Positions 20,113-36,284 of a DNA stretch of 64,000 nt are shown here, piece after piece. The position numbers were made by a program, and so were the translations under genes. Origin of the DNA: Actinomycetota bacterium. Its GTDB lineage: Bacteria > Actinomycetota > Acidimicrobiia > Actinomarinales > Actinomarinaceae. The stretch spans positions 11,078-75,077 of the forward strand of contig JAAZZH010000004.1 in the NCBI GenBank assembly GCA_014239265.1. Reading direction: 5' to 3'. Positions within the stretch are counted from its first letter, which is position 1; each line of letters starts with the position of its first letter. The notes under the pieces were generated by a model. The model saw only the letters and a list, made by a program, of their open reading frames with translations. It was not told where the DNA came from and did not search any database.

Positions 20113-20598
20113 TTATATCCACCAATTTTCATGAGCGAACTCTATCCACACTGGATTAGTGAATTTTGCAACTTCTTTAACAAAGTAATGCGGTTCAAAT
20201 TCACTTTCGTTGTTCCACCAAAGTGACATAAATCTAACATCACATTCGTGATTAATATTTTCTTTTATATATGTAGAGAGCTTTTCGAATGTTTCTCCAC
20301 TGTCACAAATATCATCAACGATAAGTATTTTTTTATCAGATGGCCTTGGGAGATAATTTTCCCAATGTGGAAAATCTCTTGTTGAAGCATGAACAGGTTT
20401 AAATGGGACATTTAATTTATGAGACATCATGACACCTGGAATAAGGCCACCCCTACTAATTCCAACAATTACATCTGGTTGGAATTCATCTTTTTCTAGT
20501 TGTTCGCAAACTAAGCCTGTATCTTTAAATTGTTCATCCCAAGTGTAATTTAGTTTTTCCATATGATGAATAATTCTATCAAATTTAGAATCCATCAC
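20113..20598 (-). CDS. Type I phosphoribosyltransferase, purine (xanthine/guanine)-PRT-like
   Basis: PRPP-binding loop KILIVDDICDSGETF. 161 aa with a Trp-rich C-terminus, as in gpt-like enzymes. Substrate not determinable by eye. Confidence 0.65.
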   Translation of the reverse strand: MMDSKFDRIIHHMEKLNYTWDEQFKDTGLVCEQLEKDEFQPDVIVGISRGGLIPGVMMSHKLNVPFKPVHASTRDFPHWENYLPRPSDKKILIVDDICDSGETFEKLSTYIKENINHECDVRFMSLWWNNESEFEPHYFVKEVAKFTNPVWIEFAHENWWI

Positions 20599-20684
20599 GA
20601 CAATTATTTGAATAAATATTTACCTCTAAAATTAATTCGTTAGTTGTGGTTCGTTTATAATGAGCTCATGAAAAGGAGGTAAGG

Positions 20685-21692
20685 ATGCATAAAAGATGGG
20701 CGGTAGGTCTAATCTTAATCAGTATTCTTACTATGGCATGCGGTGGAGCCGCATCCGTAGACGAATATAAAGCTGCATTTGTGTATGTAGGTCCAACTGA
20801 CGATGGTGGTTGGTCTCAAGCACATGATGTAGGTCGACAATATCTAGTAGAACAAACTGGTATTCAAACAGAGTACACAGCTCTAGTACCAGAAGATGCT
20901 ACAGAATTCAGAACAGTTGCAGAAGCATATATTGAACAAGGTTACAATATTATCTTTGGAACTACTTTTGGGTATATAGATGCAATGGCGGAAATGGCAG
21001 AGGAATATCCAGATGTTATTTTCCTACACTGTTCAGGTTATCTAAATAACGATACGAACTTTGCAAATTATTTTGGGAAGATGTATCAACCTAGATATCT
21101 CTCTGGTTTAGCTGCAGGAGCGATGACTGATTCAAATAAAATTGGTTATGTTGCGGCTTTCCCAATACCGGAAGTAATTAGAGGAATTAATGCTTTTGCT
21201 GCAGGTGTAAATGAGGTAAACCCTGAAGCTACTGTTGAAGTGGTTTGGACATTCACCTGGTTTGGTCCAGAAGCAGAAACGCAAGCTGCAAATGCTTTAC
21301 TTGAAAAAGGTGCAGATGTTCTTGCGCAACATCAAGACTCCACAGCAACCGGATTAGCTGCAGAAGCTGCTGGTGCAAAATGGATATCTTACAATACTGC
21401 CTACGGACAAGACTCTGCTCCGGAAGCTTTTGTGACAGCTCCAGTCTGGGATTGGGGTCCATATTATGTAAATATTGTTGAACAGATAATAGATGGGACT
21501 TTCACAACTGAAAGTTACTGGGGAGGCATGGAAACTGGTTTAGTTTCTCTATATGACTTATCTTCAGATGTTCCATCTGATATAGCAACATTAATTGCAG
21601 AAAAAACTGAAGCTATTATCGATGGCACTTTAGAAGTCGAAATAGTTGAAGAAGAATTTATTAGTAACGTTATCGGAACAGTTAATCCGTAA
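20685..21692 (+). CDS. BMP/PnrA-family ABC substrate-binding lipoprotein (nucleoside-type)
   Basis: Strong SD (AAAGGAGG) and lipobox LTMACGG. BMP-family opening ..AAFVYVGPTDDGGWSQAHD... An ABC ATPase and two permeases of the same class follow. Confidence 0.8.
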   Translation: MHKRWAVGLILISILTMACGGAASVDEYKAAFVYVGPTDDGGWSQAHDVGRQYLVEQTGIQTEYTALVPEDATEFRTVAEAYIEQGYNIIFGTTFGYIDAMAEMAEEYPDVIFLHCSGYLNNDTNFANYFGKMYQPRYLSGLAAGAMTDSNKIGYVAAFPIPEVIRGINAFAAGVNEVNPEATVEVVWTFTWFGPEAETQAANALLEKGADVLAQHQDSTATGLAAEAAGAKWISYNTAYGQDSAPEAFVTAPVWDWGPYYVNIVEQIIDGTFTTESYWGGMETGLVSLYDLSSDVPSDIATLIAEKTEAIIDGTLEVEIVEEEFISNVIGTVNP

Positions 21693-21704
21693 CTTAGACT
21701 TTTT

Positions 21705-21736
21705 ACAATGTCCTGATCTTTCGATTAGGACATTGT
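21705..21736 (+). terminator. Intercistronic stem-loop after the binding-protein gene (14-bp stem, loop TTTC; no clear U-tract)
   Basis: ACAATGTCCTGATC-TTTC-GATTAGGACATTGT. All 14 positions pair in RNA, one of them as G.U. It lies 13 nt after the stop and 14 nt before the next ATG. Confidence 0.5.
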
Positions 21737-21749
21737 AATAATTTAATAA

Positions 21750-23246
21750 ATGAACCAAATTATTCTAGAAGCTAAAAATATATCAAAATCCTTTGGGAAA
21801 ACCCAGGCATTAAAGAACGTTGATTTTTATTTAAATAAAGCACAAATACATGGTTTACTTGGTGAAAATGGAGCTGGTAAGTCATCTCTGATGAACATTT
21901 TATCTGGAATCTATCAACCAGAAACTGGCTCTATTTACATTGAAGGTAAAAAAATTAAAAAACTAAATCCTGATCTTGCTGCAAGATTTGGAATAGGTAT
22001 GGTTCATCAAGAATTTAGATTAATTAACAACTTTAGTATCAAAGATAATTTGACATTATCAAGATCTAATATCTATAAAGATAATTTTGAAGAAGCATTT
22101 GAAAAATACTCAGATATTTTCTCACTATCTGCTGAGTCAAAAACTCTTATAAATGAACTTTCAGTGGGAGAAAAGCAGAAAATAGAAATTATGAAACTTA
22201 TTTTTAATAACAACAACATTATGTTGTTAGATGAGCCAACTGCAGTACTCACACCACAAGAAACAAATCAACTAAAAATATCACTTAAAAAACTTTCAAG
22301 TGAAGACAATAAAACTATTGTCTTAATCACACATAAATTAAAAGAGATTCAGGAATTCACTGAATCAATTTTTGTATTAAAGGATGGAGTGATGGTTGCA
22401 AAAGATTTAAAAACACAAAGCGTTACAAAAAATGACTTGATCACCCTCATGATGGGAGAAATTAAGATATCTAAAGTACGAAAAGATAATCTAAAAGGTA
22501 ACAATAAACTCGAAGTTAAAAATATTTTTTTTGAAAATAATCATTCAAACGTACCAACTTTAGAGAACATATCTCTAACAGTTCAGTCAGGAGAGGTTTT
22601 AGGAATAGCAGGAGTTTCTGGTAATGGACAAGTTGAACTCGCCAACATAATATCGGGAATAGAAAGAGAGTATAAAGGAAAAGTTATAGTTAATGGTAAA
22701 AATATCTCCAATCAGGGTGTAAGGGCGAGAAAAAATTTAAATTTATCATATATTCCTGAAAATAGACTTGGAGTAGGTCTTGCACCTGGGGTCTCCATAA
22801 TCGATAATTCTGCTGTAAAAGATTATTTTAAATCAAGACTTGGACCTCATTTATCAAGCAATAAAATGCTAGATTATTTAAATTTACTTATAAAACAATT
22901 TTCCATAAAAGCTCCTGATCCAAAAGCTGAAGTTTCTACTCTTTCTGGCGGTAACATGCAGAAATTACTCATGGGAAGAGAATTAATTTCAAATCCGGAA
23001 GTAATTATTGCTGCACAGCCAACTAGAGGTCTGGATGTAAGTGCCGTTGAGGCCTTACATGAACTTATCATCAAACAGAGAGATAATGGAGCTGCTGTAA
23101 TGTTAGTTTCAGAGGATTTGGATGAATTGTTCAAATTAAGTGATAGGATAATCGTTTTATATGAAGGACAAATAGTGAGAGAGTTCAAAATAGATGAGGC
23201 TGACATTGAAAGCGTTGGTTTAGCTATGGCAGGCTCTATTGAATAA
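21750..23246 (+). CDS. ABC transporter ATP-binding protein, duplicated ATPase (sugar/nucleoside class)
   Basis: Two Walker A sites (GENGAGKSS, GVSGNGQVE) and two signature motifs (LSVGEKQ, LSGGNMQK). Confidence 0.9.
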   Translation: MNQIILEAKNISKSFGKTQALKNVDFYLNKAQIHGLLGENGAGKSSLMNILSGIYQPETGSIYIEGKKIKKLNPDLAARFGIGMVHQEFRLINNFSIKDNLTLSRSNIYKDNFEEAFEKYSDIFSLSAESKTLINELSVGEKQKIEIMKLIFNNNNIMLLDEPTAVLTPQETNQLKISLKKLSSEDNKTIVLITHKLKEIQEFTESIFVLKDGVMVAKDLKTQSVTKNDLITLMMGEIKISKVRKDNLKGNNKLEVKNIFFENNHSNVPTLENISLTVQSGEVLGIAGVSGNGQVELANIISGIEREYKGKVIVNGKNISNQGVRARKNLNLSYIPENRLGVGLAPGVSIIDNSAVKDYFKSRLGPHLSSNKMLDYLNLLIKQFSIKAPDPKAEVSTLSGGNMQKLLMGRELISNPEVIIAAQPTRGLDVSAVEALHELIIKQRDNGAAVMLVSEDLDELFKLSDRIIVLYEGQIVREFKIDEADIESVGLAMAGSIE

Positions 23247-24300
23247 ATATCTAATCTCAAAGAAAATTGTTACTAATGACTTATCAACATTTTATTCTTT
23301 TTTGATAGGACTTTCTGTTGGTATAACTATTGGTTCAATAATTCTCTTGGTCCAGGGCCAAAATCCTATAGAAGTTTTCTCGCTTATGCTACGACTGTCA
23401 GTTGGTAGCATAAAGAGCATCAGCTCCTCACTTAATAAGGCCACTCCGTTAATACTTGCTGGGCTCGGAATCTCTATAATTAATTCAGTAAAATTATGGA
23501 ACATTGGCGCTGAAGGTCAAATATTTATGGGGGGAATAGCTTTAAATTTCATGTACATAAGCTTTGAAATTTCAAATTCAAAATTGTCAATAATTCTTCT
23601 TCTGCTTTCAGCATTTATAGGTGGTTCAATATGTATACTGCTTCCTGCTGCAGCGAAGGTTCTATTTGGAGTAAATGAAATAATTACTACGTTACTCTTC
23701 AACTACATCATTATTGGCTTTACTGTCTACCTTGTAAATGGCCCTTGGAAAGATCCTAACTCTTTAAACTTTCCTGCAGCTACATATGTTGGGAAAGAAG
23801 TATATTTACCTACAGTTTTTGGAAGATTGAGCTATGGATTTATTATCTGTATCTTGTGTACAGCTGGTGTGTACTACCTTAAAGAAAAATCAGTTTTTGG
23901 TTATGAACTGCGTATATCAGGTGGTTCAGCATTAACTGCAATTTATGCAGGTATTAACGCAAAACAGAAAGCATTTATAGCTATGTTAATTGGTGGTGGC
24001 TTGGCTGGTTTAGCTGGAGGAGTTGAATTACTAAGTCAGACTCATAGAGTCTCAACTGGATTATCACAAGGATTTGGTTATACCGCTATTATTGTCGCAG
24101 CCATAACTGGAATGAGACCATTAGGTATTTTTTTAGTCGGATCTCTATTTGGAGCCTTAACTATTGGAGGGACCGTCATACAAACTATGGGGGTTAGCAG
24201 TTATATTGCAGATGTTATCCAGGCCACAACGTTATTTGGAGCACTTATCTCTCAATTCTTTTTTACCTATAAAATAATGAAAGTTTCGGAAGATGTTTGA
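23239..24300 (+). CDS. ABC transporter permease (BPD type 2)
   Basis: 353-aa polytopic protein that overlaps the ATPase gene by 8 nt. Typical partner of BMP systems. Confidence 0.8.
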   Translation: MNKYLISKKIVTNDLSTFYSFLIGLSVGITIGSIILLVQGQNPIEVFSLMLRLSVGSIKSISSSLNKATPLILAGLGISIINSVKLWNIGAEGQIFMGGIALNFMYISFEISNSKLSIILLLLSAFIGGSICILLPAAAKVLFGVNEIITTLLFNYIIIGFTVYLVNGPWKDPNSLNFPAATYVGKEVYLPTVFGRLSYGFIICILCTAGVYYLKEKSVFGYELRISGGSALTAIYAGINAKQKAFIAMLIGGGLAGLAGGVELLSQTHRVSTGLSQGFGYTAIIVAAITGMRPLGIFLVGSLFGALTIGGTVIQTMGVSSYIADVIQATTLFGALISQFFFTYKIMKVSEDV

Positions 24301-25216
24301 TATTCAATTAATGGGCCTTCTAAATGCTACTCTGCAAGCAGGAACTTTGCTCTTCATTGCAGCTCTTGGAGAGTTAATAACAGAAAAATCAGGAATTCTC
24401 AACCTTGGAGTTGAAGGGATGATTTCAGTTGGTGCAGTAAGCGGTTTTATGGTTGCAGTAAATACTGGAAATTTATTTCTTTCAGTATTGATCGGAATCT
24501 TTTCTGCTGCCTTATTTTCATCCTTACACGCTTTTGTAACGGTTATCTTAAAACAAGACCAAACTGTTTCTGGGTTGATCTTGACAATATTAGGACTTTC
24601 TTTATCTGCCCTAATGGGGAAGAAGTATGTAGGTAAAAAATTGCCTGTAAAAATAGAAAGTCTTGTAGACATTGACGAACCAAGCAACATTTATGAAGTT
24701 TTAATAAGCCAAAATTATATTTTCTATTTGGCCATTTTTCTTATGGTTGCCACATCATTCATTCTTAAAAAAACTATGTTTGGGAGGAGACTTGAAGCTG
24801 TTGGCGAAGACTCGAGAGCAGCTGACTCAATGGGTTTAAATGTAAATAAAACACAATTTATTGCAACTTGTGTCGGAGGTGGATTTTCAGGTTTAGCAGG
24901 TGTTTATCTTACATTAAGTTACGTACCATATTGGACTGACAATATGACTTCAGGTCGTGGATGGATTGCTTTAGCATTAGTCATTTTTGGAGGTTGGAAA
25001 CCCTATAGAACAGCCATTGGTGCCGTATTGTTTGGATTTCTTGAGGCTTTAGTTCCTAGATTGCAGACTTATGGGTTTGAATTAAGTCCATATCTTGTCA
25101 AAATTACTCCTTATGCAATCACAATTATAATTCTCGTCGTCCTAACTATATACAAAGGTGGTCGCACTGGAGCACCTAACAATATTGGTATTCCATTTTT
25201 TAGAGAGAATAGATAA
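24293..25216 (+). CDS. ABC transporter permease (BPD type 2)
   Basis: 307-aa polytopic protein with an 8-nt overlap with the preceding permease. Confidence 0.8.
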   Translation: MFDIQLMGLLNATLQAGTLLFIAALGELITEKSGILNLGVEGMISVGAVSGFMVAVNTGNLFLSVLIGIFSAALFSSLHAFVTVILKQDQTVSGLILTILGLSLSALMGKKYVGKKLPVKIESLVDIDEPSNIYEVLISQNYIFYLAIFLMVATSFILKKTMFGRRLEAVGEDSRAADSMGLNVNKTQFIATCVGGGFSGLAGVYLTLSYVPYWTDNMTSGRGWIALALVIFGGWKPYRTAIGAVLFGFLEALVPRLQTYGFELSPYLVKITPYAITIIILVVLTIYKGGRTGAPNNIGIPFFRENR

Positions 25217-25291
25217 CTAAGCATTTACTTCTTAAATTTGTTACTATAAAGATGACTTTAAATGATACCTGTGAGTATCGAAAGGAATGTC

Positions 25292-25768
25292 ATGGACATA
25301 AACAAAACTCTTTATAGAGTCAGTAAAGAAATTATAGAAACAGATATTGTTAACCCTCTTTTAATTGGCATTCCAAGAAGAGGTGATCATTTAGCTAAAA
25401 GAATATCTAGTAATCTTGATAGCTTTAACTATTCTCATGATTTAGATACCGTGAACTATAAGCCTTTTAGAGATGACCTTGAAAATGAAGGCGATAAATC
25501 TTCCTTAACTATAAACCCTACAGGTCGGGATGTTGTACTTATTGATGATGTAGTTTTTACCGGGAGGACCCTAAGAGCTTCTTTGGAAGCTGTTATCTTC
25601 TCTGGAAGAGCAAAATCAATTTCTGTAGCCTGTTTGATAGATAGAGGTCACAGGGAACTTCCTATCTCTCCAAAGTTTATCGGCAAAAATATACCCACTA
25701 GTGAAAGTGAATATGTTTCTGTTTACTTAGAAGAAGTTGACGGAAAAGATGAAGTCGTAGTAAGTTAA
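25292..25768 (+). CDS. pyrR: PyrR, pyrimidine operon regulator / uracil phosphoribosyltransferase
   Basis: PRPP loop VVLIDDVVFTGRTLRA and ..IDRGHRELPI.., typical of PyrR. I prefer start MDINK.. (track ORF begins at 25262). Confidence 0.8.
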   Translation: MDINKTLYRVSKEIIETDIVNPLLIGIPRRGDHLAKRISSNLDSFNYSHDLDTVNYKPFRDDLENEGDKSSLTINPTGRDVVLIDDVVFTGRTLRASLEAVIFSGRAKSISVACLIDRGHRELPISPKFIGKNIPTSESEYVSVYLEEVDGKDEVVVS

Positions 25769-26646
25769 TGAATCACTTACTAGATTTTAAAAACATTAAT
25801 GAAACTAAAGCTTTAACAATTCTTGAAACAACATTAAAAATCCAAAACGGTGAAAAATATAATATAAACGGACATTCAGTCATAAAATTTGATGAACCAT
25901 CGACTAGAACCAAAATCTCTTTTACAATAGCGGCACAAAAACTTGGCCTAGACTTGATCTTGTTAGATGACATTACATCTTCTAAAACTAAAGGAGAATC
26001 ACTGGATCATGAAATTCAAACACTTCTTTCGCTTGGAGTAGAATCACTTGTTATACGTACAAGTAAAAATAATATTGAAGAATATAGAAATTTCAAAAAC
26101 ATTGCGATTATAAGTGCAGGTTTTGGTAAAAGTTCACATCCAACACAATCAATTCTAGATGTAGCGACATTATTGAAGTATAAAAAGTTAGATGTTGATA
26201 TTCCAATAGTTTTTATTGGAGATGTTAAACATTCACGGGTATATTCGTCCACTAAAGAACTACTTAATTTACTTGGGTTTAAAGTTGGAATCTTTACTTC
26301 CGAATTTTTTATGCCTCAGGAAATAGATGGATGTTACATCTTTAGTGATTGGGAGGAAGTAATCTCTTCAAAATCAACTATTAATCTCCTTCGAGTTCAA
26401 AGTGAAAGAATTGATAATATAGAGGATTATGACCTAAATGAATACATACAGTCGTACCAACTAACAAGTAAAATAATAGATAGAACTTCGTCTGACTTTA
26501 TGTTCCTGCATCCCATGCCAATGAATATTGGGGTTGAAATTTCTAAAGAAGCGTCTGAAAATATTAAATTTAAATATATTGAGCAGCTTGCCCTTGGTGT
26601 TCCCGCAAGAATAGCAAGTTTCTTGTATGCTTTAGGAAAAATTTAA
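25768..26646 (+). CDS. pyrB: Aspartate carbamoyltransferase catalytic chain
   Basis: STRTKISF (STRTR motif), HPTQ and LHPMP blocks. 292 aa. Confidence 0.9.
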   Translation: MNHLLDFKNINETKALTILETTLKIQNGEKYNINGHSVIKFDEPSTRTKISFTIAAQKLGLDLILLDDITSSKTKGESLDHEIQTLLSLGVESLVIRTSKNNIEEYRNFKNIAIISAGFGKSSHPTQSILDVATLLKYKKLDVDIPIVFIGDVKHSRVYSSTKELLNLLGFKVGIFTSEFFMPQEIDGCYIFSDWEEVISSKSTINLLRVQSERIDNIEDYDLNEYIQSYQLTSKIIDRTSSDFMFLHPMPMNIGVEISKEASENIKFKYIEQLALGVPARIASFLYALGKI

Positions 26647-27701
26647 TGCAAATAAATAGTTTTTTAGATCTTCATACCCATACAAGATATCCTGGTAGCA
26701 AACTTATCAAACAAGAAGACATTGAACAGGCTGCTAAGAATGGGGGTTATAGTGAAATCCTTGCAATGCCTAATTCATCAAAGATAATAGACAATTTAGA
26801 GGTATTAGAGGAGGCTCGTAAACTAGACAGTTCTTTAAGTATAGAAGTTCATAGAACAGCATCACTTACTAAAGGACTGGCAGGACAAGAGCCTATTGAT
26901 TACAAGAAATTAACTGAACATGGTGTGTTTATATTTACTGATGATGGATTATCTGTCGTAGATGATAATCTAGCTGAGACTATTTTTAGATCTATAAAGG
27001 AAGTAGGGGCAGCAGTATTTCAACATTGTGAAAAAAGTTGTCATACGATGCCGGGTGATATTGCTCCCCCTAATGATAATTCTCATTTAAAGGCAATTCA
27101 CATATCCGAAGAGACAGAAATATTAAAAAGAGACCTGAAATTAGTTGAGAAATATGGAACTAGATACCACGCTCAACATCTCTCAACAATCGAAAGTGTG
27201 GAATTAATTAGAGAAGCAAAAATAAATAATCTTCCAGTAACAGCAGAAGTTACACCACATCATGTGCTTGTTAACAATGAAAATTTGGATACAAGTGATG
27301 GCAAGTATAAAATGTATCCACCAATCAGAACTGAAAATGATAGACTTGGACTAATTGCAGGTCTGAAAGATGGAACCATTGATGTAATTTCAACAGATCA
27401 TGCACCGCATCCAAAAAATGATAAAGTAGTAAATTTTAAAGAAGCTTCAAGAGGTGTAGTTGGATTAGAGTCTTCCTTTCCGATGCTTTACTCGTCAAAA
27501 ATATTTAACTTAGATGATTTAGTTATGTTCTTAGATATAAATCCAAGAAAAATACTTTCAGACATTGGTTACAAAATAAATCAAATGAGAACTTTTGAGT
27601 GGAAAATTTGTGATAAAGAATTTTATACAATTTCAGAACCAAAAAATTCATTATTTGAAGGCAATACAACATTAATTGAAACTAACGGTATTTATGTATA
27701 A
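26646..27701 (+). CDS. pyrC: Dihydroorotase (short form)
   Basis: DLHTHTR metal motif, MPNS.., ..TPHH.. and DHAPH. Only 351 aa. Position is between pyrB and carA. Confidence 0.75.
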   Translation: MQINSFLDLHTHTRYPGSKLIKQEDIEQAAKNGGYSEILAMPNSSKIIDNLEVLEEARKLDSSLSIEVHRTASLTKGLAGQEPIDYKKLTEHGVFIFTDDGLSVVDDNLAETIFRSIKEVGAAVFQHCEKSCHTMPGDIAPPNDNSHLKAIHISEETEILKRDLKLVEKYGTRYHAQHLSTIESVELIREAKINNLPVTAEVTPHHVLVNNENLDTSDGKYKMYPPIRTENDRLGLIAGLKDGTIDVISTDHAPHPKNDKVVNFKEASRGVVGLESSFPMLYSSKIFNLDDLVMFLDINPRKILSDIGYKINQMRTFEWKICDKEFYTISEPKNSLFEGNTTLIETNGIYV

Positions 27702-28791
27702 AAAAGCTTTATTAATAAATCAAGAAGGAAAAGAGTTTACAGGTTGGACAACAGAAGACTTTCATCCATCAACTGGAGAGCTTATATTTAATACTGCAAT
27801 GACTGGATTTGTTGAAATTTTAAGTGATCCTTCTTATGTGAATCAAATAATAACTTTCACTTCATCCCATATTGGGAATTATGGACTATCTAAAACTGAC
27901 TTTGAATCTGAAAGACCAAGAATCAATGGTGCGATTGGAACTAGTTTCACAACTAGCCCGTCATCATGGAGAGCTGAGCAATCAATAACTTCCTGGCTTA
28001 AAGAATATGAGATACCATATTCAGGGGGGTTTGATGTTAGGTCGATAACTTCTTACCTAAGGGATGAAGGTTCTAGTATGTTTGCATTTGGAACTGGCCT
28101 AAATTCTTCTGAACTAAAAGAATTACTTGAGAAATCAATAAATATTATCGGGGACAACTCAGCACTTACAGCTGGCAGAAATAAATATGATACGAATTCA
28201 ACAAGAAATAAAATAGGAATTTTAGACCTAGGAGCTAAACAAAGTATTGTCAGTGTAATTAAAAACTTTGGGTTTGAATGTGTATTTGTAGATCCAAAAA
28301 CCACTGCTCAAGACATTATCTCACTTGAATTAAGTGGCTTGATTATCTCAAACGGTCCCGGTGATCCGCGATCTTTAATCAATGTAGTCGACACAGTAAG
28401 AGAACTTATTGGGAAATTACCTTTATTTGGTATCTGCCTAGGACACCAAATCCTGAGTCTTGCGTGCGGATTAAGTGTAAAAAAACTTAATTTTGGTCAT
28501 CATGGTTCAAATCACCCGGTGATGGTAAGTGGCATTAAGAATGCTCTTATTACTTCACAGAACCATGGGTTCACAGTTGAATTCCCAGAAAATGAATTTG
28601 AGCATTCAAATTTTGGAAAGATTACTGAATATGCAGTAAACCTAAATGATAGGAGTAATGAAGGAATCTCTATATGGAAATCAAATGCTTACTCTGTACA
28701 ATTTCATCCTGAATCTGGTCCTGGAACAACTGATGGCTTAAAACTATTTGACCCTTTTTTCCAAATGTTAGGAAGTAAAGTTGGCAATTGA
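27694..28791 (+). CDS. carA: Carbamoyl-phosphate synthase small (glutaminase) subunit
   Basis: GICLGHQ nucleophile elbow and ..FHPE.. His/Glu block. Start MYKKALL.. is preferred over the track start 27676. Confidence 0.9.
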
Positions 28792-31700
28792 TAAAAGTAT
28801 AAAAAGTATTTTAATTATAGGTGCTGGACCAATCGTCATTGGCCAAGCATGCGAATTTGATTATTCAGGATCTCAAGCTGCTAAAGCATTAAAAAGTGAA
28901 GGCTATAAAGTAATTTTAGTTAACTCTAACCCAGCAACAATAATGACCGATCCTTCTATGGCAGATGCAACATATATAGAACCTCTTACTACAAAGTTTC
29001 TAGAAAGGATTATTGAGAAAGAAAGACCGGATGCAATACTTCCAACCTTAGGTGGTCAAACAGCACTAAATCTAGCAATGGCCTTGTACGAAGACGGTGT
29101 ATTCGAAAAATTTAACGTAAAAATTTTAGGTGCGTCAGCTTCTTCAATTGAAATAGCTGAAAATAGATGGAAATTTAAAGAAGCAATGGAGAAAGTAGGA
29201 ATCGCAACTTTAAAGGCGCATTATGTAAAAACAGTTGATGAGGGAATCGTTGCAGGTGCACAAATTGGTTATCCACTCATGCTTCGACCATCATATATTT
29301 TAGGAGGTGGAGGAACAGGTTTGGTCTATGGAGATGAAGAACTAGTAGAGAAACTTGAAAATGCATTTAAAGCTTCTCCTACTCAAGAAGTATTAATTGA
29401 AGAATCAATCTACGGGTGGAAAGAATTCGAACTTGAAGTGATGAGGGACAATGATGGAAATGGTGTAATAATATGTGGAATTGAGAACATAGACCCAATG
29501 GGTATACATACTGGAGACTCAATAACTGTTGCTCCTATCCAAACTCTATCTGATAAAGAATATCAACTTATGAGGGATGAAGCACTTTTGTGTCTTGAAA
29601 CAATTGGAATCGCTACTGGGGGAAGCAATGTTCAATTCGCAGTGAATCCTAAAAATGGTGAAAGACGTGTGATTGAGATGAATCCAAGGGTTTCAAGATC
29701 TTCCGCACTAGCTTCAAAAGCAACAGGTTTTCCAATTGCCAAATTTGCAGCACTGCTTGCAGTTGGATATAACCTAACTGAGCTAACTAATGATATCACA
29801 GGTTCTACACCAGCTAGTTTCGAGCCAGTTCAAGACTACGTTGTAGTAAAGATTCCGCGTTTTGATTTCCCTAAATTTCCGTCAACGGACGATGTGCTGG
29901 GTACTTCAATGCAAAGTGTAGGTGAAGTTATGTCTATAGCTTCTACTTTTACTGAAAGTTTAACAAAAGCCATAAGATCACTTGAGATAGGCAAAACAGG
30001 GATAAGAAACATAGATAATCGCTTTATAAACTTAGACAGGTTAGAACTTGAAAAAGAAATAACTGTACCTCGACCGCGACGAATTTTTGCAGTGCTAGAA
30101 GCTTTAAGAAGAAACTGGAGTGTTTCCAAGATATCTAATCTCAGTTATATTGACGAGTGGTTTTTATATGAAATTGAAAAAAGTTTTAATGTTAATCAAG
30201 AAACAACACCAACGACAATTTTAAAAATGCTTGGTTGGACTGAAGACGATATAGATAACAAAGATATTAAAGATGAACTTTCAAAAAATAGAGTTTATAA
30301 ACTTGTAGACACTTGTTCAGCTGAATTTTTATCAATTACACCATACCTTTACTCAACAACAGGAACAGAAGATGATGATATTTCTAGTAATAAAGAAAAA
30401 GTAGTGGTAATCGGCTCAGGACCAAACAGAATAGGACAGGGTATAGAGTTTGATTATTGCTGTGTACATGGTGTTGATGCTCTCAAAGAAAATGGATATG
30501 AGGCAATAATGATAAACTCAAATCCAGAAACTGTCTCGACTGATTATGACACAGCCGATAAATTGTACTTTGAGCCATTGAATTGGCAGGAGGTTGAAGC
30601 TGTCTTATTGAGGGAAAAACCAAAGTCCGTAATCATCCAATTAGGTGGACAAACACCTCTTAAATTAGCAGAAAAAATTGTTGAAAAAGGATACACTATT
30701 GCTGGCTCCAGTATTGAAGTTATAGATTCAACTGAGGATAGAGAATTATTCCAAAAACTTTGTACCAAAGAAAATATAAAACAACCAATCTCAAATATTG
30801 CTGCGAATGTAAAAGAGTTATCAGATTCAGTTACTCAGATAGGATATCCTGTCTTACTTCGGCCGAGTTATGTTTTAGGGGGTAGAGCTATGAGAGTCGT
30901 TAATAACGAAATTGAACTTAGTAACTACTTAGATGTACTTTCCAAAAGTGATGAAGATGGGAATCCGTTCAATTCAGGCCCTCTCTTGGTGGATGAATAC
31001 CTTACCAATGCTATAGAAATTGACGTTGATTTAATTAGTGATGGTACTGATGTAGTTATTGCTGGAATACTTGAGCATCTTGAGCCAGCTGGTGTTCATA
31101 GTGGTGACTCTACTGCAGTGCTGCCTCCTTACAGTATTGAAGAAAAAATGCTGACTGAGATTAAAGATAAAAGTATAAAACTTGCTCTGAGTCTAAATGT
31201 AAGAGGCTTGCTTAACATCCAGTTTGCAATAAAAGAAAATGAACTATACATATTAGAAGCTAACCCGAGAGCTTCAAGAACAATGCCTTTTGTTGCAAAA
31301 GTAACAAAAAATCAAATTATTAAAGCGGGAACACTCATTATGTTGGGGCATAAAATAAAAGATATCCTCAAAGATACAGATTATTTAAGTTCAAAAACTA
31401 ACAAAATAGCAGTAAAAAAAGCAATCTTTCCCTGGTCCAGGTTTCCTGCGGAAGATACTATGCTCGGCCCCGAAATGAAAGCAACTGGGGAAGTTTTAGG
31501 AATTGGAAGTAAATTAGGCATTGCTTTGAATAAAGCATATGCAGCAGCAGGAGTAGAAATTGGAGTAAAACAACAAGGGATTTTTATTACCCTGAGCGAT
31601 GAAGATAAGAATAAATTCTTAAAAACAATAAGAAAATATATAGATTTAGAATTTAAGATTTATGCAACTGAAGGAACCTCTGAGTTTCTTTTAAAAAACA

Positions 31701-31963
31701 ACATTGAGTCAATAAAAGTTGGGAGGGCAGATGATGAAGCGCCCACTTCTCTAACAATCATGCAGAAAGATCTTATATCTCTGGTTATAAATACTCCGAC
31801 TTTTGCAAATGAATATACCGATGGGTGGAAAATTAGGAGGCTAGCACATGATTCGGGAGTAGCAGTTGTATCTTCAGTAAGAGAAGCTGAAGCTTTTATT
31901 GAAGCATATGTTGAAAGTAATAATGCGTTAGTTGATATAGGGGTGATCCAAGATGTCAGTTAA
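28781..31963 (+). CDS. carB: Carbamoyl-phosphate synthase large subunit
   Basis: 1060 aa with duplicated ATP-grasp halves (..[19 protein letters not shown].., ..[18 protein letters not shown]..). Apparent TTG start overlaps the carA stop by 11 nt. Confidence 0.95.
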
Positions 31964-32591
31964 GCCAATCTTCTTTGCCTTAGATGGGAAACATTTAGAT
32001 AATTTCTCAAGAGAGCTAGAAATCTTAAAAGGAAATATATATGGTGTAAAAGTAGGCTTAGAGATGTTTACTTCAGAAGGCCCATCTTCAGTTGAAAAGT
32101 TAAAAAAAGATGGATGGAATGTTTTTCTAGATTTAAAATTACATGATATTCCAAATACAGTTCAAGCTGCAACTATAAGTGCTGGAGATATAGGTGCTGA
32201 CTATTTAACTATTCATATAGCGTCCGGAAAAGAAGCATTACTTGCAGCTAAAGAAAGTAAATCTGAAAATCTAAAACTGCTTGGTGTTAGCACTGCGCTT
32301 ACTAGCAAAGCTTATAGTCCTGAAATAAGCCAAAAAGTATATGAAGAGTTCCTACTTGCGAAGGAGTCAAAAATAGATGGTGTTATTTGTCCTCCTTCTG
32401 AACTAGTTAAAACTAAAGAATTATTTGAGCTTATTGTTACTCCCGGAATACGTTTAAAGAATGAGGATAGTCATGATCAGAAAAATATTACTACTCCTGA
32501 AAAAGCCATAAGAGATGGTGCAAGTTATTTAGTGATGGGAAGGTCTGTAAGACAAAATATTAATTATGTAGTCGAAAAACTTAAATTATGA
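31953..32591 (+). CDS. pyrF: Orotidine-5'-phosphate decarboxylase
   Basis: FFALD.., [10 protein letters not shown] catalytic motif and ..VMGRSV... 212 aa. Confidence 0.9.
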
Positions 32592-33265
32592 AAAAGTTTA
32601 TTTCTGCCCCATTTGGTAATTACATCAAAACAAACAAAACTATTTCGGTTTCAGGAAGTTGGACAATTGAAAAAAGAACTGGTCGTATTGTACAGATTGC
32701 AAAAACTCTAAGGTACACAAAACGTGGCTGGGTTAATAAAATTGGCCTTAGAAATCCAGGAATTGAAAAAGGCATTCCTCAACATGAAGATGAGCACGTA
32801 TTGTCCATAGCTGGGATCGAAAAAGATGACTGGATTAAATTTTCAGATAAAATCCCAGATAATTTTAATTTAGAAATTAATATGTCATGTCCTAATATTG
32901 ATAAACACTACACAGGTGGGATAGAAACATTTGATCCTACTTCAAGAGAATGGTTTATTGGTAAAATCTCACCACTTACTACTTTTAAAGAACTTGAATA
33001 TTTTATTAATGTACTTAAATTTAAACAAATCCATGCCTGTAATACCTTGCCGGTTGAAAAAGGAGGGTTGAGTGGGAAAGAACTTATTCCATATACAACA
33101 AAATTCATAAAGCATATTAAAAATAACTACCCAGAGATATCAACAATTGCAGGTGGGGGAATTTATACTAAAAAAGACATAGAGTACTATCAAGATATCG
33201 GTGCAGATCATATAAGTCTGGGAACTGTTTGCTTTAATCCGCTAAAATTAAGAAAGTTATTATGA
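32588..33265 (+). CDS. pyrD: Dihydroorotate dehydrogenase, class-1-like, unusually short (225 aa)
   Basis: Blocks IGLRNPG, EINMSCPN (Cys catalytic base, class 1), GGLSG, and AGGGI....D......GA..ISLGT. No pyrK-like partner gene. Confidence 0.7.
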   Translation: MKKFISAPFGNYIKTNKTISVSGSWTIEKRTGRIVQIAKTLRYTKRGWVNKIGLRNPGIEKGIPQHEDEHVLSIAGIEKDDWIKFSDKIPDNFNLEINMSCPNIDKHYTGGIETFDPTSREWFIGKISPLTTFKELEYFINVLKFKQIHACNTLPVEKGGLSGKELIPYTTKFIKHIKNNYPEISTIAGGGIYTKKDIEYYQDIGADHISLGTVCFNPLKLRKLL

Positions 33266-33618
33266 ACTTATTTATTAAAGAAGATTTTATTTCTCATGCA
33301 GGATTGCCTTTGACATGGAAAGTTGAATGTGATGCATTAAGTGATAATGATTATGAGGCTTTAGCAAAGATTGTTAGTGAAAAAATTACTTTTAGAGCTG
33401 TAAGAGGTATTCCTAGAGGAGGAATTCCCTTTGAAAAGGCACTTAAACAATACTGTACCAATAATCCTGCCGATCCTCTTTTAATTGCAGATGATGTTTA
33501 TACCACTGGAACATCAATGAGAGAAGTCTACGAAGATGGTGCCATAGGAATAGTGGTTTTTGCCAGAAATGAAATAAAAGACGACTGGATTAGAGCTATT
33601 TGGCAGATATCTATTTGA
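33262..33618 (+). CDS. Minimal type I phosphoribosyltransferase (118 aa); possible orotate PRTase substitute
   Basis: PRPP loop LLIADDVYTTGTSM, preceded by RGIPRGGIPFE. It occupies the slot where pyrE would complete the operon but is much shorter than canonical PyrE. Confidence 0.5.
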   Translation: MNLFIKEDFISHAGLPLTWKVECDALSDNDYEALAKIVSEKITFRAVRGIPRGGIPFEKALKQYCTNNPADPLLIADDVYTTGTSMREVYEDGAIGIVVFARNEIKDDWIRAIWQISI

Positions 33619-33619
33619 T

Positions 33620-34483
33620 ATGACAATAAATAAATATACAACTTCTCTAGATGGACTCATCATAGAAAATCCTGTTAAGAGTTTTTTTGATTACTGTATA
33701 GAAAGAGAGAATATTCGTCTAAAGAGAGAAAAGGGAGAAATCTTCCCTTGGAGTGATGATGAAATTTTTCAAAAAGGAAGATTTTTAAATGTTTTTAGAG
33801 AAGATGATAAAGTCAGTAAATCTATAATATCATTTGCCGAACCTCTGAAAAATGATCTCCCAAGACTAATTCAAGCATTATTTTTTGGAAGATGGTGCAA
33901 TCGTCAGGAGACACTGGATCAATTAAATCATCAAGACTTGGAAAGTACTGATGCCCTTAGAGTGAAACTTTCAAAGTCCACACAATGGGAAAACTTTAAT
34001 GCCTACCCCGTCCAAGATGTAATGTGGATGGGGAAAACCTACAGCAGATTAGATACTGCTACTTATCTTTTTAATGAGATAAAGGAAGATCTTGTAGATA
34101 TTATTTTGAATTCAGAATTAGATGTTATCAAAGCAACAAACAATATAAATGAGTTATTTAAAATGGAGAATGACTTCCCTATTTTCATGGCTTTAATAGA
34201 TATTGCCTGGTTTAGAGAGGATGTGATTCCAATTACCTCCGAAGTTCCAACAGGGATAGGTGCACAACCTTACTTAGACAGGCTAGAAGATTATTTAGGC
34301 TTAGATAACCATCAAGATGTTGCAACTAAGATGATTTCATTACAACAAGAATACTGGCCAACCGCAAAAAGAGAATTCTATCCTATAGATATTGAATACC
34401 AATCCTGTGAATGTAGAAAATATTTTAGTTACGTAAATGGTACAAAAAAATTTGAGGGTAAAAATCTTTTAATAATTGATTAG
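33620..34483 (+). CDS. Hypothetical 287-aa protein; N-terminal block resembles the helical domain of the 5-hmdU DNA kinase / aGPT-pyrophosphorylase superfamily (unverified)
   Basis: ATG lies 1 nt after the PRTase stop. It is the last gene of the pyr string. The family call rests on the block ERENIRLKREKGEIFPWSDDEIFQKGRFLNVFREDD and on memory only. Confidence 0.35.
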   Translation: MTINKYTTSLDGLIIENPVKSFFDYCIERENIRLKREKGEIFPWSDDEIFQKGRFLNVFREDDKVSKSIISFAEPLKNDLPRLIQALFFGRWCNRQETLDQLNHQDLESTDALRVKLSKSTQWENFNAYPVQDVMWMGKTYSRLDTATYLFNEIKEDLVDIILNSELDVIKATNNINELFKMENDFPIFMALIDIAWFREDVIPITSEVPTGIGAQPYLDRLEDYLGLDNHQDVATKMISLQQEYWPTAKREFYPIDIEYQSCECRKYFSYVNGTKKFEGKNLLIID

Positions 34484-34914
34484 TTAGATAGCTTATTAAT
34501 CCGTCTTAAATATCTTTCCTCTTTTGTAAACCTTGCTTCAAGAAAAGCTGAAATTATATCCATCGCATCTTCACTGTTAATATTATTAGATCCAAGTGAG
34601 AGAACATTTACGTTGTTGTGTTCAACACTCTGTATAGCTGTAGCTTTGTCGTTTACATTTGCAGCACGTATCCCAGCAAACTTATTTGCAGCTATTGACA
34701 TACCGACTCCACTACCGCAAATCAAAACACCTCTGTAGTCTTGATTTTCAAGGATATACTCACAAACTTTGGAAGCATAATCAGGAAAGTCACAACTCTC
34801 AGTAGAGTTAGTACCAAAATCATTCACTACAATATTGCTGTCTAAATTATTAAGGATGTAATTTTTTAACTCATATCCAGCATGGTCTGAGGCAATAGCA
34901 ACTTTTGTAAACAT
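34480..34914 (-). CDS. rpiB: Ribose-5-phosphate isomerase B
   Basis: 144 aa. VAIASDHAGYELK.. and ..ICGSGVGMSIAANK.. are typical of RpiB/LacAB. Confidence 0.9.
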   Translation of the reverse strand: MFTKVAIASDHAGYELKNYILNNLDSNIVVNDFGTNSTESCDFPDYASKVCEYILENQDYRGVLICGSGVGMSIAANKFAGIRAANVNDKATAIQSVEHNNVNVLSLGSNNINSEDAMDIISAFLEARFTKEERYLRRINKLSN

Positions 34915-36284
34915 TAAATAAGTTTTTCGATATCCAAAAGATTATCTATTTCATCTTCTGACAGTAGAGCTTTCTCTAGAAGTACTTTTTTAATAGTATT
35001 ATTTGTTGCGACAGCTTCTTTTGCAATTTCAGCTGCAGTGTCATATCCAAGTTTGGGAACTAAAGCCGTAACTAGAATGGAATTCTTTTGTATATTTTCA
35101 TCTAATTTTTCTGTGTTTGCTTCTAACCCAACTATTAATTTTTCTGTAAATGTTTTTGTACCTGTAGTAAGAATGGAAATACTCTCTAAAATATTATGGG
35201 CCATAACTGGCAACATTGTATTTAATTCAAAATTGCCATTTGCTGATGAAAATGTAATTGTAGAATCATTACCAATTACTTGTGCTGAAACCTGCATCAT
35301 CATTTCTGGAATAACAGGATTTACCTTACCTGGCATTATGGATGATCCTGGTTGAAGCGCTGGTATTTTTAATTCGCCCAATCCTGATACTGGACCACTT
35401 CCCATCCATCTAATATCATTTGCTATTTTAAACAAAGATACAGCTAAAGACTTTAATGAACCGGAAAGTTGTACAATTTCTTCTCTAGCTCCCTGCCTCG
35501 TAAAATGATTTTCTACTTCTTGAAAAGAGGTTTGAAGAGATTCTTCTAATTCTTTTGAGACGTCACTACCAAAATTTTCCGGAGCATTAATGCCAGTTCC
35601 AACTGCAGTTCCACCTATTGCAAGTTTTCGTACATTATCTAAAGCATTTTGTATATCTGTAGTTCTTTCTTTAATTAAGGATGCATAACCAGAAAATTCT
35701 TGGCCAAGTGTGACTGGGGTAGCATCCATTAGATGGGTGCGTCCATTTTTATAGATTTTCTCCCAGTTTTTTGCTTTTTCTGTGAGCGACTCACTTAAAT
35801 TTTCTAACTCAGGTATCAATCCTTGTGAGACTTCTAAAACAGATGCAACATTTGTAGCTGTTGGAATAATGTCATTTGAAGATTGACTCATATTTACATG
35901 ATCATTTGGATGGATGGTGATACCGCTCATTTCAGATGCTAAATTTGCGATTACTTCATTGGCGTTCATATTTGTAGAGGTTCCTGAACCAGTTTGAAAA
36001 ATATCTAAAATAAAGTCTTTATCATGATCCCCATCAATAACCTCTTGGGCACTTTTGATAATTGCACCGGCCATATTCTCATCAAGTAGACCATTTTTTT
36101 GATTAACAACTGCACAAGCTTTCTTGATTTCAGCTAAAGATTTGATAAAAGTCCTTGAAAATCTTAATTCTGATATTGGAAAGTTGTCAACAGCTCTAGC
36201 AGTTGATGCACCATATTTAGCTGACTCTGGAACTTCAAATTCACCCATTGAGTCTTTTTCTATTCTCATATTTTCTTTGCTCAA
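34914..36284 (-). CDS. aspA: Aspartate ammonia-lyase (class II fumarase/aspartase family)
   Basis: Signature GSSIMPGKVNPVIPEMM. The VIPE continuation and the N-terminal ..NFPIS.. resemble aspartases, whereas FumC has ..NPTQCEA... Confidence 0.7.
   Translation of the reverse strand: MSKENMRIEKDSMGEFEVPESAKYGASTARAVDNFPISELRFSRTFIKSLAEIKKACAVVNQKNGLLDENMAGAIIKSAQEVIDGDHDKDFILDIFQTGSGTSTNMNANEVIANLASEMSGITIHPNDHVNMSQSSNDIIPTATNVASVLEVSQGLIPELENLSESLTEKAKNWEKIYKNGRTHLMDATPVTLGQEFSGYASLIKERTTDIQNALDNVRKLAIGGTAVGTGINAPENFGSDVSKELEESLQTSFQEVENHFTRQGAREEIVQLSGSLKSLAVSLFKIANDIRWMGSGPVSGLGELKIPALQPGSSIMPGKVNPVIPEMMMQVSAQVIGNDSTITFSSANGNFELNTMLPVMAHNILESISILTTGTKTFTEKLIVGLEANTEKLDENIQKNSILVTALVPKLGYDTAAEIAKEAVATNNTIKKVLLEKALLSEDEIDNLLDIEKLI

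Follow-up and report, generated by a model that had tools for sequence, protein, structure and literature searches.

The HMUDK_hel Locus

The window analysed (the whole 64-kb stretch, from contig JAAZZH010000004.1) contains a 287-amino acid (aa) open reading frame (ORF) that closes a pyrimidine (pyr) operon and encodes a stand-alone, kinase-less protein of the HMUDK_hel family (PF18723) in Candidatus Actinomarina. The gene and its immediate surroundings comprised the following features.

25262–33618, forward strand: pyr operon in the order pyrR (from 25262), pyrB, pyrC, carA, carB, pyrF, a pyrD-like gene and a phosphoribosyltransferase-like (PRT-like) gene, as given by the ORFs and by the Pfam families of orthologous loci.
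33262–33618, forward strand: the PRT-like ORF, 118 aa, with a Pribosyltran score of 18.8 bits, below the cut-off, and no PDB sequence match.
33620–34483, forward strand: the HMUDK_hel gene, with an ATG at 33620 and a TAG at 34481–34483.
34480–34914, reverse strand: rpiB (LacAB_rpiB), convergent, with its stop codon at 34480–34482.

A first-pass annotation of the same DNA had described the gene as the ninth of a gap-free pyr string, with its ATG 1 nt past the PRT-like stop, a 4-nt convergent overlap with rpiB, and no promoter or terminator of its own. The coordinates and the order of the ORFs confirmed this description. The nine ORFs form a near gap-free string on one strand, the single base 33619 separates the PRT-like stop codon (TGA, 33616–33618) from the ATG, and the stop codons of the HMUDK_hel gene and rpiB overlap by 4 nt. 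A promoter and terminator consensus scan of positions 33000–35200 of the window showed no signal above the shuffled expectation.

The ORF was considered a genuine gene because 104 full-length orthologues, from genomes and metagenomes, were intact, with 0 internal stops and 81 invariant positions. One metagenome contig (L113, 589–1476) carried the gene in three pieces with two frameshifts. This was the sole such case in approximately 105 copies and represents either a pseudogene or an assembly error.

Family Membership and Conserved Residues

Hmmscan analysis of the protein identified PF18723 ('5-hmdU DNA kinase, helical domain'; 5-hmdU, 5-hydroxymethyldeoxyuridine) with a score of 59.2 bits (E 5.3e-16) against a cut-off of 25. 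The match was full-length, spanning aa 19–269 of the protein and positions 4–272 of the 281 in the profile. It was the sole match in the Pfam scan and no NCBIfam model matched the protein, in agreement with the earlier statement that it corresponds to no canonical pyrimidine enzyme. PF18723 was also the precomputed assignment of 120 of the 120 orthologue clusters listed. PHROG 2396, for which the function is not assigned, matched the protein with an E of 1e-19. Tblastn against phage genomes returned full-length matches of 23–27% identity in M6/PaMx11-like Pseudomonas phages, located inside thymidine-hypermodification clusters, and partial matches in Stenotrophomonas, Ralstonia and other phages. 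The first-pass annotation had suggested an HMUDK_hel-type family for the protein, and the Pfam, PHROG and tblastn results, together with the Foldseek results below, bear this out. Membership of this family and the conclusion that the protein is not a pyr-pathway enzyme are jointly held with high confidence.

Twelve residues (R29, W44, D47, N57, R60, D63, Y129, G214, E259, C263, E264 and K267; numbering of the window protein) were invariant in an alignment of 21 sequences comprising phage, fusion and stand-alone HMUDK_hel members. The first of these fall within the N-terminal hallmark block that the first-pass annotation had quoted:

33695–33817, forward strand: CIERENIRLKREKGEIFPWSDDEIFQKGRFLNVFREDDKVS (aa 26–66), which holds the family-invariant R29, W44, D47, N57, R60 and D63.

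A largely overlapping core, including E259, C263, E264 and K267, was again invariant when 111 sequences were aligned, comprising the Actinomarina orthologues, fusion relatives from bacteria and a diverse set of stand-alone members. In the 104 orthologues, all 12 family invariants were essentially fixed, with D47 replaced by N in two.

Predicted Structure

An AlphaFold2 model, generated with the 111-sequence alignment, had a pLDDT of 95.9 and a pTM of 0.91 and was comprised of 15 helices and one short hairpin. A Foldseek comparison with predicted viral structures placed phage HMUDK_hel proteins first, followed by models of Pplase1 and of the amino-acid:DNA transferases (AADT):

SP10 5-hmdU DNA kinase, helical part: TMq 0.75, E 3.5e-7.
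phiRSL1 HMUDK_hel protein: TMq 0.70, E 3.3e-6.
PhiW-14 HMUDK_hel protein: TMq 0.63, E 5.2e-6.
Pplase1 models: TMq 0.58, E 1.7e-3 and 6.7e-3.
AADT models: TMq 0.53–0.60, probability 1.0, E 4.1e-3 to 5.7e-2.

The predicted fold is that of the HMUDK_hel/Pplase/AADT superfamily, which has been called glycosylase-like but structurally distinct (PMC11472151, PMC13458397; glycosylase-like also in PMC8989533). HMUDK_hel is an all-helical sister family of the phage amino-acid:DNA transferases (AADT, aGPT-Pplase). The AADT profile itself (PF18724) gave no match for the window protein at an hmmscan E of up to 1, and does match gp46 of phage PaMx11 and gp039 of phage Sonora. Sequence searches of the PDB, with the single protein and with a profile of the 21 sequences, returned nothing meaningful.

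Linkage to the pyr Operon

The genomic context was determined for relatives from species-representative genomes. A scan of these genomes gave 187 relatives, of which the best 80 were analysed as genome loci (L numbers), and 79 of these 80 could be scored:

20 Actinomarina loci: pyrF, pyrD-like, PRT-like, the gene, rpiB, fumC, as in the window.
3 Actinomarina loci (L009, L012, L051): nucleoside ATP-binding cassette (ABC) permeases, the gene, rpiB, fumC, with the whole 8.4-kb pyr block gone.
27 Actinomarina loci, 66–73% identity: a umuC-like gene for a Y-family polymerase, then the gene 35 nt further downstream.
15 SAR406 loci: the gene overlapping the end of lptF/G.
5 SAR406 loci: the gene behind an old yellow enzyme (OYE)-type flavin oxidoreductase gene.
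2 SAR406 loci: the gene behind a glycerophosphotransferase gene.
Remaining loci, from SAR406 and unassigned metagenome-assembled genomes (MAGs): other contexts.

A conserved position behind pyrD and the PRT-like gene, on which the first-pass annotation had staked its functional proposal, was therefore not found, and none of the approximately 29 SAR406-type loci in the census, with their lptF/G or other neighbours, was pyr-linked. The three pyr-less loci belong to three separate Actinomarina sub-lineages. In one of them (L009, 7921–8000), a relic of approximately 40 nt from the 3' end of the PRT-like gene persists just before the HMUDK_hel ATG, indicating that the pyr block was lost through a deletion that spared the gene. 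The pyr-less Actinomarina are probably pyrimidine auxotrophs that rely on nucleoside uptake.

The linkage was also assessed in the reverse direction by a metagenome scan with the PRT-like protein, which provided 62 informative contigs (L095–L160). The PRT-like stop abuts the convergent rpiB stop, with a gap of approximately 2 nt and no HMUDK_hel gene, in 34 of the 62, and the 0.86-kb HMUDK_hel gene lies exactly between the two in the other 28. At the end of the pyr operon, presence and absence of the gene form a clean polymorphism. Since each can be present where the other is missing, the linkage between the pyr operon and the gene does not represent a functional tie. With approximately 59 genome loci in which the gene has no PRT-like neighbour, the PRT-like ORF is a neighbour, and not a partner, of the HMUDK_hel gene.

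In every arrangement, the gene is the last of its operon and faces a convergent gene. Because it is always at the operon tail, in a genome with almost no intergenic space, the pyr-tail position is read as lineage-specific transcriptional hitch-hiking on the promoter of a neighbour. For annotation, this means that the tight welding of a gene into an operon of a streamlined genome can be pure hitch-hiking.

The downstream side of the gene also varied. In one Actinomarina clade (L066, 8867–12727; L054), rpiB and fumC are replaced by unrelated ORFs, including those of a 393-aa Thr/Ser-rich protein and a 593-aa P-loop protein, in what looks like a flexible island beginning directly past the HMUDK_hel gene.

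The umuC-Linked Loci

The umuC-like polymerase of the 27 loci has IMS, IMS_C and DUF4113 domains and, with a score of 425 bits, falls short of the 431-bit cut-off of the UmuC model. It is adjoined by a divergent umuD-like S24 peptidase gene (166 bits, cut-off 110), and a convergent major facilitator superfamily (MFS) transporter gene is present downstream. The space between the umuD-like gene and the divergent umuC-like gene holds an 18-bp near-palindrome, GAATAGTGTACAGTATTC, that is perfectly conserved in 27 of 27 loci (L014, L016–L042; positions 6657–6674 in L016); it is not present in the 64-kb window. The canonical Gram-positive LexA box, GAAC-N4-GTTC, was searched for near the umuC-linked copies and was not found, and the palindrome may be an SOS-type operator with a sequence other than this consensus. 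The umuC linkage in 27 genomes gives only a hint of a DNA-related role for the HMUDK_hel gene.

Relatives and Origin of the Gene

Orthologues in Candidatus Actinomarina sp. (OCS155, Actinomarinales) showed 79–100% identity to the window protein, with two assemblies at 100%. An exhaustive search of 50%-identity representatives identified 928 relatives. The best 80 of the 187 relatives in the species-representative scan came from approximately 50 Actinomarina and approximately 30 Marinimicrobia/SAR406 genomes; the more distant cellular members could be placed taxonomically from only a few source names. The SAR406 and Actinomarina proteins share 62–64% identity (L043, L062–L086), so that SAR406 is no more distant than the most divergent Actinomarina clade; the gene has therefore crossed between two phyla of streamlined marine bacteria. 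The pyr-linked and umuC-linked Actinomarina forms are interleaved in the tree, so that the gene has also moved within the genus.

The nearest non-orthologues, at 50–60% identity, are fusions of approximately 490 aa in which HMUDK_hel is followed by an AAA_28 P-loop kinase domain that is weakly similar to the ribosylnicotinamide-kinase part of NadR. The fusions form more than 100 clusters at 90% identity, of which the few with named sources come from Myxococcota, Lysobacterales and other Proteobacteria MAGs, and are encoded by single genes in unrelated and variable contexts. The 287-aa form is best read as a kinase-less derivative of this HMUDK_hel-AAA_28 fusion family, because, in a neighbour-joining tree, the proteins of Actinomarina and SAR406 branch next to the fusion clade or inside it. 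No kinase gene adjoined any of the approximately 80 orthologues, and no kinase domain or relic of one was found near them, with chance-level matches only downstream.

The Phage Hypermodification Clusters

The PaMx11 homologue is gp50 and the Sonora homologue is gp042. Both genes lie directly downstream of a PF18748 P-loop 5-hmdU DNA kinase gene and adjoin a thymidylate-synthase-like dUMP hydroxymethylase gene, with the AADT gene (PF18724; gp46 in PaMx11) a few kb away. Among 50 phage loci collected via the AADT gene, 37 carry the AADT, kinase and helical genes together, and 33 of these 37 also carry the hydroxymethylase; the kinase and helical genes are almost always adjacent. Tblastn of PaMx11 gp51 and gp46 against the 64-kb window gave chance-level matches only (E above 6). 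The Actinomarina locus is not a member of a phage-type hypermodification system, though its protein belongs to one of the families of that system.

The HMUDK_hel homologue of phage M6, gp55, was included in a mix of five lysates and was dispensable for product formation in vitro, and the M6 kinase gp54 alone phosphorylates 5-hmdU in DNA (PMC8989533). The later structural and biochemical papers do not address the HMUDK_hel protein (PMC11472151, PMC13458397).

Putative Active Site and Proposed Chemistry

Two further segments of the protein were of interest in relation to the transferases:

34394–34423, forward strand: C-terminal motif E259-Y-Q-S-C263-E264-C-R-K267-Y268, with a putative metal-binding Glu and a putative catalytic Cys.
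34166–34204, forward strand: helix segment ENDFPIFMALIDI (aa 183–195), with the invariant F186 and D194, aligned by hhalign with the AADT segment FGPWIGFKVAD.

In the AADTs, a conserved Cys is essential and is proposed to add to C6 of a flipped-out pyrimidine, thereby activating C5, and a Glu/Thr pair holds an essential divalent metal (PMC11472151, PMC13458397). The Cys and the metal-site Glu/Thr are likewise required in Pplase2 (PMC13458397). Base flipping and Cys247 have been described for PUGT, which is PaMx11 gp46, and its residues Asp24, Trp146 and Lys150 bind the glycine donor (PMC11472151).

The HMUDK_hel family was aligned by hhalign in local mode with an AADT profile of 5 sequences and then with one of 47 sequences; global mode was uninformative. 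E259 and C263 fell opposite E243 and C247 of gp46 in three collinear runs, each statistically weak, and D47 fell opposite Asp24, also in a weak alignment. The correspondences of E259, C263 and D47 with the metal-binding Glu, catalytic Cys and active-site Asp of the transferases are weak but repeatable. The segment from F186 to D194 was placed opposite FGPWIGFKVAD, and both residues are invariant in the 111 members and in the 104 orthologues. The donor-binding Lys150 of gp46 lay opposite M190 and Trp146 opposite F186 (weak alignment). As the donor-binding residues do not seem to be conserved in this alignment, the outcome is probably not amino-acid transfer, and the second substrate or the product may differ from those of the transferases.

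In the mechanism that we propose, a pocket would hold a 5-substituted uracil nucleotide, in flipped-out form in the case of a DNA substrate. Cys263 would add to C6 of the uracil-type base, and a divalent metal held by E259 would help the substituent of the 5-methylene carbon to leave or be exchanged. From the residue correspondences above, we lean slightly towards Cys/metal chemistry of this kind at C5 of a uracil-type nucleotide.

Net charge and isoelectric point (pI) were considered as a proxy for DNA binding and discarded as uninformative. The Actinomarina protein has a pI of 4.8, its cytosolic neighbours are acidic too, and the DNA-binding PUGT has a pI of 5.7.

Proposed Cellular Role

Under the reading that we favour, the enzyme would handle 5-hydroxymethyluracil (5-hmU)-type bases, that is, oxidised thymine, in the cell's own DNA, and would serve DNA maintenance and not pyrimidine biosynthesis. 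Actinomarina live in sunlit surface water. A DNA 5-hmU substrate would fit this way of life and the umuD/umuC linkage in 27 genomes, and 5-hmU arising by thymine oxidation in the cell's own DNA would be the most economical physiological substrate. The maintenance role is nonetheless put forward tentatively. The explanation as a whole, comprising the family, the Cys/metal chemistry and the role in 5-hmU maintenance, is the best available and is given a little under an even chance. A bolder version, in which cellular HMUDK_hel would be a catalytic core for handling 5-hmU in DNA without base excision, is distinctly unlikely. It would entail activation of the 5-CH2-OH group and its Cys-C6-assisted replacement or removal, a cellular stock behind the phage enzymes, and, in the 27 genomes, a third gene of a damage-inducible umuD/umuC unit.

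Several observations weigh against the DNA maintenance reading and the chemistry on which it depends. No HMUDK_hel protein has a demonstrated activity. The hhalign relation to the transferases is marginal (P 0.013–0.07, probability below 4%). Foldseek against the PDB gave nothing significant (none at E up to 0.001) and did not retrieve the PUGT and YuA Pplase2 crystal structures; the best, insignificant matches were QNG1/DUF2419 and a clostridial Ogg, with probabilities of 0.1–0.3 and a best E of 0.5. No kinase, hydroxymethylase or TET/JBP gene, and hence no programmed source of 5-hmU, was detected in the 64-kb window, which would leave damage as the origin of the proposed substrate. Since the gene is always at the operon tail, its association with umuC may be no less incidental than that with the pyr operon. 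Finally, the NadR-like kinase of the fusions is of a small-molecule type, and this argues for a free nucleoside or nucleotide as substrate no less than for DNA.

The main alternative is that the protein acts on free nucleosides or nucleotides, in the salvage or detoxification of a modified pyrimidine nucleotide from seawater, such as 5-hydroxymethyl-dUMP or 5-hmdU, with the NadR-like kinase phosphorylating the nucleoside first in the fusions. The AAA_28/NadR-type kinase is of the nucleoside-kinase type and not the phage DNA-kinase type (PF18748). In the window lineage, the neighbourhood is rich in nucleotide metabolism (a phosphoribosyltransferase gene, Bmp/PnrA-type nucleoside ABC uptake, the pyr operon and rpiB), a PNP_UDP_1 phosphorylase gene directly follows the HMUDK_hel gene in one SAR406 locus, and QNG1/DUF2419, the best though insignificant PDB fold match, is glycosylase-like and works on a free nucleotide. 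However, DNA is the substrate of all superfamily members characterised so far (PMC8989533, PMC11472151, PMC13458397). The other Actinomarina group and SAR406 do not share the nucleotide-metabolism context, the gene survives deletion of the pyr operon and is missing from many intact pyr operons, and the fusions occur in unrelated, variable contexts. This alternative is considered somewhat unlikely.

A slim chance is given to a non-catalytic module or sensor that would read hypermodified or 5-hmU-containing DNA, for example in anti-phage defence or as an accessory for the targeting of other enzymes. Domains of aGPT-Pplase have been listed as predicted, unvalidated defence domains (PMC13092281), no catalytic contribution of the phage homologue gp55 was detected in vitro, and thymidine-hypermodification clusters are carried by many marine phages (PMC8989533). 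The invariance of Glu-x3-Cys-Glu-x2-Lys across phage, fusion and stand-alone forms, however, has the look of an active site. None of the three proteins screened with PADLOC (the window protein, one fusion relative and PaMx11 gp50) had a match, and the gene is syntenic and core-like, in housekeeping operons and not in defence islands, with no adjacent effector gene.

Programmed thymine modification of the cell's own DNA, with a 5-hmdU source and a kinase encoded elsewhere in the genome, is very improbable. The homology to components of the phage thymidine-hypermodification clusters speaks for it, and the 64 kb examined belong to a genome of approximately 1 Mb. In the phages, however, the kinase is almost always adjacent and the hydroxymethylase and AADT are within a few kb (37 of 50 loci), whereas such partners were not found in the window or in the approximately 80 orthologous loci, and a streamlined 1-Mb genome is an unlikely home for a dispersed multi-gene pathway.

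Scarcely credible, finally, is the proposal of the first-pass annotation that the protein is a ninth pyr-operon enzyme, joining the 118-aa PRT-like protein in pyrophosphate transfer on a pyrimidine nucleotide or an intermediate derived from phosphoribosyl pyrophosphate (PRPP): the 1-nt junction with the PRT-like gene recurs in the window, 20 genome loci and 28 metagenome contigs, but only 20 of 79 loci are pyr-linked, the PRT-like gene abuts rpiB without the gene in 34 of 62 contigs, the gene outlasts the loss of the whole operon, PRT-like gene included, in three lineages and lies elsewhere in 27 Actinomarina and all SAR406 loci, and the name 'pyrophosphorylase' goes back to a 2013 prediction that experiment has replaced with mono-phosphorylation and the subsequent transfer of an amino acid or amine (PMC8989533). 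Its variant, a base modification fed directly by de novo synthesis of uridine monophosphate (UMP), does not agree with the retention of the gene in the three loci without a pyr operon or with the 27 umuC-linked loci.

If the DNA maintenance reading is true and the protein acts on 5-hmU-type bases, it would be a cellular counterpart, and possibly the origin, of the phage thymidine-hypermodification chemistry, and a new enzyme type for reading or editing 5-hmU. The protein is a good candidate for biochemistry, being small, soluble-looking and confidently modelled, with an obvious pair of residues to mutate.

Neighbouring Genes

The PRT-like protein is the most conserved of the pyr operon, with 86–92% identity, compared to 64–80% for its neighbours. 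No Pfam, NCBIfam or PDB match exceeded the threshold, and the protein is without the stretch that holds the flexible catalytic loop of orotate phosphoribosyltransferase. Homologues of 140 aa, with 49% identity and the first 30 residues nearly identical, were identified in phage-like metagenome contigs (L161–L166; 1486–1908 in L162), where the neighbours are small ORFs with no assigned function.

The pyrD-like ORF (32588–33265, 225 aa) has the motifs of class-1B dihydroorotate dehydrogenase at both ends and a shortened mid-barrel. Its NCBIfam scores were all far below the cut-offs, and the operon is without a PyrK partner.

Upstream of the pyr operon, positions 20113–25216 of the window contain a 160-aa Pribosyltran gene (reverse strand) and genes for a Bmp/PnrA-type binding protein, an ABC ATPase and two permeases. 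The binding protein and ABC genes constitute a nucleoside uptake system, and the region is a nucleotide-supply neighbourhood.

Comparison with Known Systems

The family is catalogued in Pfam, its NCBI name is 'nucleotide kinase domain-containing protein', and the existence of cellular homologues of HMUDK_hel has been mentioned (PMC5889632). A full-text literature search turned up no paper discussing the cellular forms. What is novel here is a cellular, kinase-less, core-like form of a known but functionally uncharacterised family. It is a conserved and intact operon-tail gene in Actinomarina and SAR406, two of the most abundant groups of streamlined bacterioplankton. Widespread bacterial kinase fusions are the closest relatives of the protein, which retains the phage transferases' apparent catalytic motif.

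The helix-hairpin-helix DNA glycosylases (such as Ogg) and QNG1/DUF2419 resemble the window protein in their all-helical, two-lobed architecture. They differ in that there was no significant match, with TM values of 0.28–0.34 for 7ugk and 0.21 for 3i0x.

The AADTs (PF18724: PaMx11 gp46, which is PUGT, M6 gp51, and the Pplase2 proteins of YuA and SH-Ab 15599) have the same class of fold (TM 0.53–0.60, probability 1.0), and the E-x3-C motif and N-terminal Asp of the window protein align, with weak statistics, with the transferase metal-site Glu, catalytic Cys and Asp24. In contrast, the profile-profile relation is marginal, and Trp146 and Lys150 of PUGT have F186 and M190 opposite them.

The phage HMUDK_hel proteins (PaMx11 gp50, M6 gp55, Sonora gp042, PhiW-14, phiRSL1 and the helical part of SP10) share with the window protein the full-length PF18723 match, the 12 invariant residues and the fold (TMq 0.63–0.75). 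The sequence identity is 23–27%, however, and the phage gene almost always lies directly downstream of, or is fused to, a PF18748 kinase gene, whereas the Actinomarina gene is chromosomal, core-like and partnerless.

The bacterial HMUDK_hel + AAA_28 fusions, annotated as 'nucleotide kinase domain-containing protein' or 'predicted ATPase', have all of the invariant residues in common with the window protein, and the likeness extends across the whole helical domain. Like the fusion genes, the Actinomarina gene is a single gene without conserved partners. The difference is that the Actinomarina and SAR406 proteins stop directly past the helical domain.

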